Assembly: GCF_001677475.2 (NCBI RefSeq)
Contig: NZ_CP012498.1
DNA length: 64,000 nucleotides
Strand: one strand, 5' to 3'
From: Escherichia coli
Lineage (GTDB): Bacteria > Pseudomonadota > Gammaproteobacteria > Enterobacterales > Enterobacteriaceae
Of the stretch, positions 30,001 through 36,000 are shown piece after piece; within the stretch, counting starts at the first letter, position 1, and every line of letters starts with the position of its first letter. Made by a program: the position numbers.

Positions 30001-33000
30001 GGGCACGGCTCTGGATTATCGTGAACGGATACGCCTTTTTGTTCAGATCCAGTATTCACACGAGAGTGACTGGTCTGAAATATTGCGCCTGACTGATATC
30101 GTGCTGGAAAAAGTTTCTTCCGGCAGGCCAGCAGGCGGCTATCACCACCGGTATACAGGGTATACATGGTATACATGGTATACATGGTTTGTTCTGTGAA
30201 TGCATTCCACACCGCTCTTTTCTGCTCTGTTCCTGACTTTCCCGGAGTTTCATCATGAGTTTTAACGCAAAGGATATGACCCAGGGCGGTCAGATTGCGT
30301 CCATGCGTATCCGCATGTTCAGCCAGATCGCCAATATCATGCTTTACTGCCTGTTCATTTTTTTCTGGATCCTCGTTGGTCTGGTTTTATGGGTAAAACT
30401 AAGCTGGCAGACGTTTGTGAACGGCTGTATTTACTGGTGGTGCACCACGCTGGAAGGCATGCGGGATTTAATCAGGTCCCAGCCGGTCTATGAGATCCAG
30501 TATTACGGCAAAACCTTCCGGATGAACGCGGCTCAGGTACTGCATGATAAATATATGATCTGGTGCGGTGAGCAGCTATGGTCCGCATTCGTTCTGGCCA
30601 CTATTGTGGCCCTGGTTATCTGCCTGATCACCTTCTTTGTTGTCTCCTGGATTCTGGGGCGTCAGGGTAAACAACAGAGCGAAAATGAAGTCACAGGTGG
30701 TCGTCAGCTGACAGACAACCCGAAGGACGTTGCCCGGATGCTGAAAAAAGACGGCAAGGACTCCGATATCCGGATTGGCGACCTGCCGATTATCCGGGAT
30801 TCCGAAATCCAGAACTTCTGTCTGCACGGCACGGTCGGGGCCGGTAAGTCGGAAGTTATCCGTCGTCTGGCCAACTACGCCCGTCAGCGTGGTGATATGG
30901 TGGTGATTTATGACCGATCAGGGGAATTTGTTAAAAGTTACTATGACCCGTCCATTGATAAGATCCTGAATCCGCTGGATGCCCGCTGTGCCGCCTGGGA
31001 TTTGTGGAAGGAGTGCCTGACACAGCCGGATTTTGATAATACGGCAAATACCCTGATCCCGATGGGTACAAAAGAGGATCCGTTCTGGCAGGGTTCAGGA
31101 CGTACCATTTTTGCGGAAGCGGCGTACCTGATGCGCAATGACCCCAACCGCAGCTACAGCAAACTGGTGGACACACTGCTTTCCATCAAAATTGAAAAAC
31201 TGCGTACCTTCCTGCGTAATTCACCTGCGGCCAACCTGGTGGAAGAGAAAATCGAGAAAACGGCGATTTCCATCCGTGCAGTGCTGACCAACTACGTGAA
31301 AGCCATCCGTTACCTGCAGGGGATTGAGCATAACGGTGAGCCCTTCACCATCCGTGACTGGATGCGTGGTGTCCGGGAAGATCAGAAAAACGGCTGGCTG
31401 TTTATCTCGTCGAACGCCGACACCCATGCTTCCCTGAAACCGGTGATCTCCATGTGGCTGTCCATTGCCATTCGTGGGCTGCTGGCAATGGGAGAAAACC
31501 GTAACCGTCGTGTGTGGTTTTTCTGTGATGAGTTACCCACGTTACACAAATTGCCGGACCTGGTGGAGATCCTGCCGGAAGCCCGTAAGTTCGGTGGCTG
31601 TTATGTGTTTGGTATCCAGTCCTATGCCCAGCTGGAAGATATCTACGGTGAGAAAGCGGCAGCCACGCTGTTTGACGTCATGAACACCCGTGCCTTTTTC
31701 CGTTCTCCCAGCCATAAGATTGCAGAGTTCGCTGCCGGTGAAATTGGTGAGAAAGAGCACCTGAAAGCCAGCGAGCAGTATTCCTACGGTGCTGACCCTG
31801 TACGTGACGGGGTATCGACCGGTAAGGATATGGAGCGCCAGACGCTGGTCAGTTATTCCGACATTCAGTCTCTGCCGGATCTGACCTGCTATGTCACCCT
31901 GCCCGGACCGTATCCGGCAGTAAAACTCTCACTGAAATATCAGGCACGACCGAAGGTTGCTCCGGAGTTTATTCCGCGTGATCTCAATCCGGAAATGGAG
32001 AACCGCCTGAGTGCCGTGCTTGCCGCAAGGGAAGCAGAAGGTCGCCAGATGGCCAGCCTCTTCGAACCGGATGTGCCGGAGGTCGTTTCCGGAGAGAACG
32101 TGACTCAGGGTGAACAGCCACAACAGCCAGTGTCTTCTGTCATCAATGATAAGAAGTCAGATGCAGGTGTGAGTGTTCCGGCAGGGGGGATCGCGCAGGA
32201 GCTGAAAATGAAACCGGAAGAAGAGATGGAACAGCAACTGCCACCCGGGATCAGTGAATCCGGTGAAGTGGTGGATATGGCCGTTTATGAGGCATGGCAA
32301 CGGGAGCAGAATCCGGATATCCAGCAGCAGATGCAGCGCCGTGAAGAGGTAAATATCAACGTGCACCGGGAGCGCGGGGAGGATGTTGAGCCGGGAGATG
32401 ATTTCTGATGAACAGGTCAGCTCCAGTCTTCAATTCGCAGACCGTCCACACGTTCAAATTCCCGGGTGTTATTAGTCACAATAATCAGTCCCCGACTGCG
32501 GGCATGACCTGCGATCATTTGATCAAATGGCCTGACAGGGCGTCCCTGACGGGCAAGTTCTGCTCTTATCTGGCCGGTGTGTGTGGCTGCGGCAGCGTCG
32601 TAATCCAGAACATCAATGCGGGAAACAAATCCCTCGATCACAGCGAGATTGCGTTCAGGCATCTGGCTTTTTTCTGCACCATATATCAGCTCCATCAGGG
32701 TGACAGAGCTGATACACATTCTCCCCTGGTTCAGGTTAAAACGTTCTCTGACACTGGCGGGCTTGTTCTTTATTGTGAAAATGCAGATGTTGGTATCGAG
32801 CATAAACTTCAGCATCAGAATGACTCCCTTTCCTGCATGCCGGGCTGTTCCCTGTTATCCATAAAATCAGCGCTGACGCTGTTTCCGTCGAACCATTCAT
32901 CCCATGACTCTCCGGCTGGCGTAATGATACGGGTTCGTCCGACAGCAATCACTTCAACGCGTTTTACGTTTTCCGGCAATGCAACCGCTTTTGGCAGCCT

Positions 33001-36000
33001 GACCGCCTGGCTGCGGTTGCTGAGAAATACGGTGGTTTCCATCATTTACCTCCTTACATGGATATGTCTTGCGCATATCCATTGTGGGATCGTTGTCGGG
33101 ATATGTCAAAGGGATATACGTTTATGATGAGTATCGCGCAGGTCAGATCGGCCGGAAGTGCCGGTAACTATTATACCGACAAGGATAATTACTATGTGCT
33201 GGGCAGCATGGGGGAACGCTGGGCCGGCAGGGGGGCAGAGCAACTGGGGCTGCAGGGCAGTGTCGATAAGGATGTCTTTACCCGTCTTCTGGAGGGGAAA
33301 CTGCCGGACGGAGCGGATTTAAGCCGCATGCAGGATGGCAGTAACAGGCATCGTCCCGGTTACGACCTGACGTTCTCCGCCCCCAAAAGTGTCTCCATGA
33401 TGGCCATGCCAGGTGGCGATAAGCGCCTGATTGATGCACATAATCAGGCCGTGGATTTTGCTGTCCGTCAGGTGGAGGCGCTGGCCTCCACACGGGTGAT
33501 GACGGACGGACAGTCAGAAACGGTGCTGACCGGTAATCTGGTGATGGCACTGTTTAACCACGACACCAGTCGCGATCAGGAACCACAGTTACACACGCAT
33601 GCGGTGGTGGCTAATGTCACGCAGCATAACGGCGAGTGGAAGACACTGAGCAGTGACAAAGTGGGGAAAACGGGGTTCATTGAGAATGTGTACGCTAATC
33701 AGATTGCCTTTGGCAGGCTCTACCGGGAAAAACTGAAAGAGCAGGTTGAGGCGCTGGGCTATGAAACTGAAGTGGTTGGTAAGCACGGTATGTGGGAAAT
33801 GCCGGGCGTACCGGTGGAGGCCTTTTCCGGACGCTCGCAGGCTATCCGGGAGGCCGTCGGGGAAGACGCCTCGCTGAAATCCCGGGATGTGGCGGCACTG
33901 GATACGCGAAAATCCAAACAGCACGTCGATCCTGAAGTCAGAATGGCTGAATGGATGCAGACGCTGAAGGAAACCGGGTTCGACATCCGGGCATATCGTG
34001 ACGCGGCGGATCAGCGTGCGGAGAGCCGCATGCAGACGCCCGGGCCAGCTTCACAGGACGGGCCGGATGTGCAGCAGGCGGTGACACAGGCCATTGCCGG
34101 ATTAAGTGAACGAAAAGTGCAGTTTACGTACACGGATGTGCTGGCCAGAACGGTCGGTATATTGCCGCCGGAAAATGGTGTGATTGAGCGGGCCCGTGCC
34201 GGTATCGATGAGGCCATCAGCCGTGAGAAGCTGATTCCCCTCGACCGTGAGAAGGGGCTGTTCACGTCCGGGATTCATGTGCTCGATGAGCTGTCAGTCC
34301 GGGCACTCAGTCGTGACATCATGAAACAGAACCGGGTGACTGTACATCCGGAGAAAAGTGTCCCCCGGACGACCGGTTACAGCGATGCTGTCAGCGTTCT
34401 GGCACAGGACCGTCCGTCGCTGGCCATTGTGTCCGGGCAGGGCGGTGCAGCCGGGCAGCGTGAGCGGGTGGCCGAGCTGGCAATGATGGCCCGGGAGCAG
34501 GGGCGGGAAGTGCAGATTATCGCCGCTGACCGTCGCTCGCAGATGAACCTGAAGCAGGATGAGCGGCTGTCCGGTGAGCTGATAACCGGGCGGCGTCAGC
34601 TGCTGGAGGGCATGGCCTTCACACCGGGAAGTACTGTTATCGTTGACCAGGGCGAAAAACTCTCCCTGAAAGAGACGTTAACCCTGCTGGACGGTGCCGC
34701 ACGTCATAACGTACAGGTCCTGATAAGCGACAGCGGACAGCGAACCGGTACAGGCAGTGCGCTGATGGCCATGAAAGATGCCGGGGTGAACACATATCGC
34801 TGGCAGGGGGGAGAGCAGCGACCGGCAACCATCATCAGTGAACCGGACCGGAATGTCCGCTATGCCCGGCTGGTCGGGGACTTTGCGGCCAGCGTGAAAG
34901 CCGGAGAAGAGAGCGTGGCACAGGTCAGCGGAGTACGGGAACAGGCCATACTGACACAGGCCATTCGCAGTGAGCTGAAAACACAGGGCGTGCTCGGACA
35001 CCCGGAGGTGACCATGACTGCACTGTCACCGGTCTGGCTGGACAGCCGGAGCCGTTATCTGCGGGATATGTATCGCCCGGGGATGGTGATGGAGCAGTGG
35101 AACCCGGAGACACGCAGTCATGACCGTTATGTGATAGACCGGGTGACGGCGCAGAGTCACAGCCTGACCCTGTGGGATGCGCAGGGCGAAACGCAGGTGG
35201 TGCGTATTTCCTCCCTGGACAGCAGCTGGTCGCTGTTCCGGCCGGAAAAAATACCGGTGGCAGAGGGCGAGCGTCTGAGGGTGACGGGAAAAATCCCCGG
35301 ACTCCGCATCTCCGGCGGTGACCGCCTGCAGGTGGCATCCGTCAGCGAGGACGCGATGACGGTTGTTGTGCCGGGGCGGGCTGAACCGGCCTCCCTGCCT
35401 GTTGGCTACTCACCGTTCACGGCACTGAAGCTGGAGAGCGGCTGGGTGGAAACGCCCGGGCATTCCGTCAGTGACAGTGCGACGGTGTTTGCCTCCGTCA
35501 CACAGATGGCAATGGACAACGCCACCCTGAACGGTCTGGCCCGCAGCGGTCGTGATGTCCGGCTGTATTCCTCACTGGATGAAACCCGTACTGCGGAAAA
35601 ACTTGCCCGCCATCCGTCCTTTACGGTGGTTTCTGAGCAGATAAAGGCGCGTGCCGGTGAGACATTGCTGGAAACCTCTATCCGTCTGCAGAAAGCCGGG
35701 CTTCACACGCCGGCACAGCAGGCCATTCATCTGGCCCTTCCGGTAATGGAAAGTAAAAACCTGGCTTTCAGCATGGTGGACCTGCTGACAGAGGCGAAGT
35801 CGTTTGCTGCAGAGGGAACCAGTTTTACTGACCTGGGACGGGAAATCAATGCGCAGATAAAACGCGGTGATTTACTGTATGTGGATGTGGCAAAAGGCTA
35901 TGGCACAGGACTGCTGGTTTCCCGTGCGTCGTATGAGGCAGAAAAGAGCATTCTTCGCCATATTCTCGAAGGTAAGGAGGCGGTCACGCCGCTGATGGAG

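Follow-up and report, generated by a model that had tools for sequence, protein, structure and literature searches.

An antisense vapBC cassette at the traD-traI junction of F-like plasmids and the stop-free trbH frame that runs across it

Results

The traD-traI junction carries a vapBC cassette on the minus strand

The DNA analyzed here is a stretch of 64,000 nucleotides (nt) from Escherichia coli (contig NZ_CP012498.1 of RefSeq assembly GCF_001677475.2), hereafter called the window. It includes an intact F-like tra operon in which a cassette of ~716 bp is placed, in the antisense orientation, exactly at the junction of the traD stop and the traI start (Table 1). Three open reading frames (ORFs) were listed over 32408-33127, including one of 132 amino acids (aa) and one of 76 aa (32815..33045) on the minus strand and one of 239 aa on the plus strand. 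The latter covers the whole cassette, and its span was the one given in a first-pass annotation of this DNA. As reported below, the minus strand encodes the antitoxin VapB and the toxin VapC, and the plus-strand ORF is the frame known as trbH. We consider it highly probable that, taken as a whole, the locus is an F-type vapBC cassette lying antisense at the traD/traI junction, with a trbH frame that selection appears to keep open.

The nearest relatives of the window are IncFIA/FIB plasmids of 215-240 kb such as pCFSAN004180G. Since this closest plasmid (99.8% identical) possesses a complete traM-traX operon, along with finO, hok, and the IncFII repA, the cassette is located inside an intact tra operon and away from the replicon.

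The minus-strand products were identified by profile searches. VapC scored 76.6 bits against Pfam PF01850 (PIN; cutoff 23.6, E=3.2e-21) over residues 5-125 of its 132 and 287 bits over its full length against NCBIfam NF010285, the tRNA(fMet)-specific VapC (cutoff 143). VapB scored 112.2 bits against NCBIfam NF040493 (cutoff 60) and, at the borderline, 25.2 bits against Pfam PF04014 (MazE/AbrB; cutoff 24.7). The stop codon of vapB and the start codon of vapC overlap as ATGA at 32812-32815, and the A at 32815 is common to both ORFs. These matches and the overlap bear out the first-pass annotation, which had placed a minus-strand VapB/VapC pair with overlapping stop and start between traD and traI and had proposed PIN and AbrB searches as the check. 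Its likening of the pair to Shigella MvpAT proved accurate as well: VapC is identical to Shigella flexneri VapC (PDB 6SD6, 3TND) at 129 of 132 positions, VapB is identical to the Shigella VapB of the crystal structure at 74 of 75, and pCP301 labels its 97%-identical pair mvpA/mvpT. The antitoxin gene precedes the toxin gene, the two overlap, and a single sigma-70-like promoter lies upstream of vapB, which is the layout of a type II toxin-antitoxin operon. At the level of sequence, these data confirmed that the minus-strand pair is a VapB/VapC (MvpAT-type) type II toxin-antitoxin module.

Two start codons needed to be settled. The vapB frame contains an alternative upstream ATG at 33045, which accounts for the 76-aa ORF; the second ATG at 33042, giving 75 aa, is the likely start, because AAGGAGG sits 6 nt before it and the same start is used in the RefSeq and PDB entries. 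Upstream of traI, its frame stays open as far as an ATG at 33058 within the vapO1-like operator, and ORF finders thus give a TraI of 1778 aa. The true traI start is at 33124 (MMSIAQ...) and not at 33058, since traI is annotated there in the 99.8%-identical plasmid and begins with the same MMSIAQ in a plasmid lacking the cassette (see below).

Table 1. Features of the traD-traI region of the window
Feature	Position	Strand	Remark
traD (coupling protein)	30255..32408	+	717-aa ORF; RefSeq traD in the 99.8%-identical plasmid
GGGAG Shine-Dalgarno in the end of traD	32393-32397	+	Served traI as its native ribosome-binding site before the insertion; serves the trbH ATG at present
traD stop TGA	32406-32408	+	
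"trbH" ORF	32408..33127	+	239 codons; antisense through vapC, vapB, and the vapBC promoter
trbH start ATG	32408-32410	+	Overlaps the traD stop as TGATG
vapC (mvpT-type)	32417..32815	-	132-aa PIN-domain toxin, annotated as tRNA(fMet)-specific endonuclease
vapB (mvpA-type)	32815..33042	-	75-aa antitoxin with N-terminal AbrB/MazE-type DNA-binding domain
vapB Shine-Dalgarno AAGGAGG	33049..33055	-	6 nt ahead of the ATG at 33042; read from the sequence
vapO1-like putative operator	33058..33082		Perfect inverted repeat ATGGATATG-N7-CATATCCAT; abuts/overlaps the -10 box
Predicted vapBC promoter	33081..33109	-	Opposes tra transcription
vapO2-like putative operator	33099..33122		GGATATGTCAAAGGGATATACGTT; covers the -35 box
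traI (relaxase/helicase)	33124..38394	+	Working start ATGATG at 33124
trbH stop TGA	33125-33127	+	Overlaps the traI ATG as ATGA

The toxin of the window carries an unusual residue near its active site

VapC residues D7, E42, D98, and E119 are all intact in the window and invariant, or nearly so, among 88 homologues. We take E119 to be an active-site residue as well, given its invariance among these homologues. VapB residues R64 and Q66 can be read directly in the 75-aa product. According to the VapC structure paper, Asp7, Glu42, and Asp98 are the conserved acidic residues of the active site, and in the crystal structure R64 and Q66 of VapB insert into that site.

The VapC of the window differs from the Shigella protein by G95R, G124D, and T128I. 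The first of these changes (codon AGG on the minus strand, 32530-32532) falls three residues ahead of the catalytic D98; Gly occupies this position in 85 of the 88 homologues and also in the 99.8%-identical plasmid (GGA). The exact Arg-95 VapC was found on 109 public contigs, which marks it as an allele in circulation and not an error. The position of G95R raises the question of whether the vapBC of the window is an attenuated or inactive killer that persists only because it is carried along as a passenger or forms an autoregulated DNA-binding complex, and inactive toxin alleles have been described in sister systems, such as CcdB on pSLT. We regard this as unlikely, given that neither the four catalytic acidic residues nor the VapB contacts are altered, that the allele has spread to many contigs and Arg-95 recurs in one distant homologue (L065), and that the NCBIfam score is twice the cutoff.

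The minus strand, not the trbH frame, is under selection for protein sequence

The window was aligned with copies of the cassette at 96%, 87%, 73%, 71%, and 62% nucleotide identity. Compared with the Salmonella copy, vapC exhibits 42 synonymous and 7 nonsynonymous codon changes in the minus frame, and the same differences, when read in the plus frame, amount to 5 synonymous and 44 nonsynonymous changes. Across clades, the nonsynonymous divergence (dN) is ~0.12-0.2, and the synonymous divergence (dS) is saturated. The low dN, the saturated dS, and the 42/7 versus 5/44 split indicated that the protein-coding sequence under purifying selection lies on the minus strand. The first-pass annotation had named conservation of the plus-strand ORF as evidence that could overturn it; the comparison favored the minus strand instead. 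Substitution analysis decided the question where codon usage, the other comparison suggested there, could not: scores of the relative synonymous codon usage type were 0.10 for vapC, -0.05 for vapB, and 0.06 for trbH, versus 0.23 for traD and 0.24 for traI, and the two strands were not separated.

The plus-strand ORF could still encode a genuine TrbH transfer protein, in which case true overlapping genes would lie on opposite strands. It is long, conserved as an ORF, and equipped with a ribosome-binding site and a coupled start, and it bears a historical tra-region name. However, its 239-aa product matched no Pfam or NCBIfam family, and the exact product was absent from a collection of 15 billion proteins. 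With vapC dS saturated, silent changes in vapC have been free to alter TrbH. TrbH identities between clades were then compared with those of a null combining VapBC conservation with random stop-free synonymous codons. For the three clade pairs involving Serratia, which are the most divergent, identities of 0.51, 0.47, and 0.43 were obtained, against null values of 0.50, 0.46, and 0.45. The remaining pairs lay 2-6 standard deviations above the null, among them the two cross-clade pairs with the E. coli-type copy of the window (0.55 and 0.54 versus a null of ~0.47); such an excess is expected where synonymous sites are not fully randomized (dS 0.8-1.6). Purifying selection has thus not kept the TrbH sequence in the way that defines a protein family. 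Furthermore, trbH has been detected in only 8% of MOBF12 plasmids (literature), and plasmids with an empty site have none. A TrbH transfer protein is therefore, in our judgment, very improbable, and selection appears to act on the absence of stop codons and not on the TrbH protein sequence. Records such as pOU7519 and JF274991 still annotate "TrbH" on the equivalent DNA, in agreement with the first-pass annotation, which had recognized in the 239-aa ORF a trbH-type annotation. Such labels should give way to VapC and VapB.

The cassette occupies an ancestral overlap of traD and traI

The uninterrupted junction is found in plasmid pRHB35-C09_2, whose flanks are 99.1% identical to the window and which carries neither the cassette nor trbH. 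Its junction reads GATTTCTGATGATGAGTATC (longer stretch, ...GATTTCTGATGATGAGTATCGCG...), and its traI starts directly on the traD stop, with which the ATG overlaps as TGATG. In the window, the left junction reads GATTTCTGATGAACAGG followed by TCAGCTCC, the latter being the vapC end, and the right junction reads ...ACGTTTATGATGAGTATCGCG. Because the traI ATG lies on the traD stop in the empty-site plasmid, the trbH ATG at 32408 is the orphaned ancestral start codon of traI. From there, trbH runs through vapC as its codon-for-codon reverse complement, passes through vapB in an offset frame, continues across the promoter and operators, and ends at the TGA within the ATGATG of the present traI start.

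The corresponding ORFs of Serratia and Edwardsiella still open with a recognizable copy of the traI start (ATGATGAGCATTGGCCA, ATGTTGAGTATC). A similar interpretation of the E. coli left junction (ATGAACAGGTCAG) as a remnant of traI's CAGGTCAG was considered and is not relied on here, TCAGCTCCA being simply the vapC end. In the Serratia proteamaculans plasmid NZ_MT039190.1 (locus L090, 2614-3385), a 681-bp duplicate of the 5' end of traI is present between traD and the cassette. This duplicate is annotated as a "MobF family relaxase" of 226 aa and starts on the traD stop, and the bridging ORF starts one nucleotide after the stop of the duplicate. The S. proteamaculans plasmid may capture how the cassette came in together with a duplicated traI start, of which later trimming left 78, 36, 24, or 9 nt in other lineages.

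The trbH frame is free of stop codons in every examined lineage with the cassette between traD and traI

All retrievable lineages with the cassette in the traD-traI context were compared: E. coli/Shigella, pSLT, three Serratia marcescens variants, S. proteamaculans, two Pantoea, Enterobacter huaxiensis, and Edwardsiella tarda. Not a single stop was found in the trbH frame of any of them (9-10 lineages, five clades), whereas the other two frames are full of stops. The frame is 239-273 codons long in these lineages. The overlap of its ATG with the upstream stop and that of its TGA with the traI start (ATGA or TGATG) are kept throughout, except that the S. proteamaculans ATG follows the stop by one nucleotide. 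Spacer lengths differ between lineages (9, 24, 36, 57, and 78 nt on the 5' side; 82, 115, or 118 nt on the 3' side), and each of them preserves the frame.

The only vapC codons that place a stop in the plus-strand frame are TTA, CTA, and TCA. None of these codons occurs in the vapC of any copy in the traD-traI context, in contrast to six in the Agrobacterium copy. The five main clades have saturated synonymous divergence from one another and can be treated as effectively independent in codon choice, so that the probability of finding the frame open in each of them could be estimated by resampling synonymous codons according to the tra-gene usage of each plasmid and scoring openness across vapC and vapB. 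The estimates were 0.185, 0.083, 0.53, 0.25, and 0.016, with a product of ~3e-5 that excludes the spacers, the frame relations, and the indels.

The frame is rarely open in copies outside the traD-traI context

As a control, 80 vapC homologues were drawn from GTDB genomes, none of which adjoins traD or traI. TTA, CTA, and TCA are all absent in 11 of these genes; the antisense frame is open across the whole of vapBC in 3 and interrupted by stops in the other 77.

A closer comparison is provided by Salmonella IncFII plasmids (loci L005, L102, L097, L103, and L098), in which the relocated cassette follows traX and precedes a phospholipase-D-family gene and repA. These copies keep ~45 nt of the traD 3' end plus the TGATG and thus derive from a traD-traI cassette. 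All five contain in-frame stops, 1-3 each, at vapC positions +279 and +315, vapB positions +591 and +624, or operator-spacer position +666, whereas their nearest relatives still at the traD-traI junction, in Pantoea and Enterobacter, have zero stops. In the L097 copy, the vapB start is damaged as well.

A third tra-operon location for antisense vapBC is seen in the E. coli plasmid pRHB07-C12_3 (CP055750.1; locus L105, 2641-3416), where the cassette lies between a DUF2726 gene and traD and its VapC is 88.5% identical. The cassette junction has an untranslated leader of 133 nt and is uncoupled, and the trbH-type frame is broken; traD and traI overlap directly in this plasmid. A scan of viral contigs for relatives returned one irrelevant partial locus.

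An open trbH frame might also be a pure chance by-product of the avoidance of the rare codons TTA, CTA, and TCA by vapC, with no selection on the frame. Stops over vapB likewise can come only from a few dinucleotide contexts, the chance of openness is 0.08-0.53 per lineage in four of the clades, 11 of the 80 control genes contain none of the three codons, and codon-usage scoring favors neither strand. What speaks against chance is the combination: every sampled traD-traI lineage is open through both genes and the spacers with both overlaps kept, across five clades with saturated divergence; the joint null is very small even with the spacers and frame-preserving indels left uncounted; and the nearest relatives outside this context all carry in-frame stops. 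Hence, we consider a chance origin quite unlikely, somewhat more so than an attenuated toxin, and the absence of stop codons in trbH appears to be under selection in the traD-traI context.

The predicted vapBC promoter is overlaid by two putative operators

The vapBC promoter is predicted to consist of a -35 box TTGACA (33109-33104) and a -10 box CACAAT (33086-33081) separated by a 17-nt spacer, with 10 of 12 positions matching the consensus. The inverted repeat at 33058-33082 has 9-nt arms that are 100% complementary, and this vapO1-like element is kept from E. coli to Serratia. Four GGATAT half-sites are present at 33060-33118. The vapO2-like element is kept even in the Agrobacterium homologue, and a GGGA within it occupies the place where a weak traI Shine-Dalgarno sequence would sit. 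In the homologous system of Salmonella LT2, vapO1 lies over the -10 box and vapO2 over the -35 box. The two elements of the window match this published layout and are putative operators of the vapO1/vapO2 type for autoregulation.

On Agrobacterium tumefaciens pAtA6 (locus L006, 3625-3700, beside repABC), the distal operator GGGATATGTCAATGGGATATAC differs little from the enterobacterial vapO2, despite no more than 62-65% DNA identity between the genes. The VapB-operator code appears to be conserved across alpha- and gammaproteobacteria.

Other signals in the region were weak. When the cassette was searched for a plus-strand promoter able to drive traI, a single weak 9/12 match (32748-32776) came up, which did not surpass shuffled sequence. 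Minus-strand hairpins resembling terminators inside the vapBC genes were judged to be chance, and an Rfam scan of 31500-34000 gave just two sub-threshold chance matches. Farther upstream, the traT-traD interval is unusually long and contains two hypothetical ORFs in the closest plasmid. It houses a 9-bp tandem repeat, GGTATACAT x 4.3 (96% matches), at 30150-30188, 67 bp upstream of the traD ATG.

Discussion

trbH as a candidate translational bridge

The trbH frame starts on the upstream stop, stops on the downstream start, and is stop-free only where it links coupled genes, which are the features of a bridge ORF. We lean toward the view that trbH is such an element, a translational bridge from traD to traI maintained by selection, and thus neither a protein gene nor a meaningless antisense frame. 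The first-pass annotation had dismissed the plus-strand ORF as a noncoding antisense artefact. This holds for its amino acid sequence, which is unconstrained, but not for the frame itself, since the openness and both overlaps are kept in the traD-traI context and lost elsewhere.

The bridge could have arisen as follows. A cassette would have landed backwards on the traD/traI overlap, and the orphaned traI start would then have directed translation of vapC, vapB, and their promoter in reverse complement. Selection would bar TTA, CTA, and TCA from vapC and tolerate only frame-preserving indels in the spacers, such that the frame of 239-273 codons stays stop-free. Ribosomes leaving traD would translate trbH and be released on the present traI ATG, by which the translational coupling of traD and traI would be preserved. 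Translation of trbH would also spare 0.7 kb of otherwise untranslated tra mRNA from Rho-dependent polarity on traI, the gene of the essential relaxase.

Several points weigh against this interpretation. The null probabilities of single lineages, 0.016-0.53, are not tiny, and the independent clades number about five, taken from BLAST lists, out of ~1,150 cassette-bearing plasmids. traI is itself equipped with a Shine-Dalgarno-like sequence, a strong one in Serratia and Pantoea, and transcription converging from the vapBC promoter may make translation across trbH more complicated. An F trbH::kan insertion (Maneewannakul and Ippen-Ihler, 1993) reportedly left transfer unimpaired, and the bridge would thus not be essential in the laboratory. 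No TrbH product is known to have been seen. As for the cassette itself, G95R could attenuate the VapC of the window.

The vapBC assignment matters for annotation only: the plasmid gains a second, replicon-independent addiction module, as on F, pINV, and pSLT. If the bridge were real, it would explain "trbH," a 30-year-old orphan, and the synonymous codons of a toxin gene would be dictated by the need to be readable backwards, through translation of the opposite strand. A coupled bridge ORF would then be a general recipe by which operons tolerate antisense insertions without polar damage, and the mechanism would bear on how conjugative plasmids accrete cargo within essential polycistronic operons. 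Selection that keeps an antisense frame open only at a traD-traI bridge was not found in the literature searched.

The vapBC module and its probable benefit to the plasmid

By analogy with its characterized homologues, VapC, a PIN-domain endonuclease, would cut initiator tRNA(fMet) and thereby shut translation down. VapB would hold it in check through its C-terminal tail, in which R64 and Q66 would block the active site of VapC, and the VapBC complex would repress its own promoter by means of the N-terminal AbrB-type domain of VapB bound to the operators over the -10 and -35 boxes. In plasmid-free segregants, degradation of VapB by the Lon protease would release VapC, and the cells would stop growing. 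Such postsegregational killing would stabilize the plasmid independently of its replicon.

A stabilizing role is documented for the homologues on pSLT and pINV, which are 95-97% identical. A 2016 paper described vapBC2 of pSLT as "encoded within the trbH gene" and homologous to mvpAT and found that it reduces plasmid loss 5.5-fold; the same paper summarizes that MvpT cleaves initiator tRNA and that mvpAT on pINV acts by postsegregational killing. Lon-dependent decay of VapB and conditional cooperativity have been reported for the LT2 homologue.

There is a small chance, about equal to that of an attenuated toxin, that the main benefit of the cassette depends on where it sits in the tra operon, for example through tra read-through antisense to vapBC that links the toxin to conjugation, or through fitness under stress or infection. 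The cassette is strictly antisense in all tra contexts, a Shigella preprint reports an antisense "as-trbH" transcript and infection-related roles of VapBC, and vapBC2 of pSLT also aids intracellular survival (literature). Against this, stabilization has been measured directly for the homologues, and the same cassette also functions away from tra, as on Shigella pINV, whose tra region is decayed.

Comparison with known systems

A vapBC module between traD and traI is already known from F, pINV, and pSLT and is routinely annotated. The whole traD-cassette-traI stretch was found in 1,154 plasmid records and the cassette in 1,269. Most of these records come from E. coli, Salmonella, and Shigella, and the two genes carry VapC and VapB annotations in RefSeq. 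In one E. coli plasmid, OR902841.1, the traD-adjacent vapC is annotated as vapC_1 plus vapC_2 and the match is 3 nt shorter, which could reflect either a disrupted toxin or an assembly error.

The F plasmid (NC_002483.1) has traD at 89804-91957, VapC at 91966-92364 and VapB at 92364-92591 on the complementary strand (both now annotated by RefSeq), and traI from 92673. Organization, orientation, and spacing are those of the window (9 nt after traD and 82 nt before traI), and the cassettes are ~95% identical, with allelic differences only, such as G95R of VapC in the window. The classical F gene "trbH" is thus the antisense frame of vapBC. A 2025 Shigella preprint treats trbH as an antisense transcript with no assigned function.

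MvpA/MvpT of the S. flexneri virulence plasmids (pMYSH6000, pWR100, and pCP301; PDB 3TND, 6SD6, 5ECW, and others) has the same operators as the window and is experimentally defined as a tRNA(fMet) endonuclease, a hetero-octameric repressor, and a postsegregational killing system. In Shigella, the tra operon around the cassette is decayed, with a truncated traI, and a bridge function would be moot there. VapBC2(ST) of pSLT occupies the same traD-traI position with the 239-codon antisense ORF intact. Its VapC and VapB are each 95% identical in protein sequence to those of the window at 86.5% nucleotide identity (dS ~0.8), and traD is not listed as an intact coding sequence in the copy examined.

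The chromosomal VapBC of Salmonella LT2 also has an AbrB-type, Lon-labile VapB and a promoter/operator layout like that of the window. Unlike the latter, it does not lie antisense inside an operon and has no requirement for a bridging ORF. At the other end of the comparison, the native TGATG overlap of pRHB35-C09_2, in which traI begins directly on the traD stop, is what a trbH bridge would replace.

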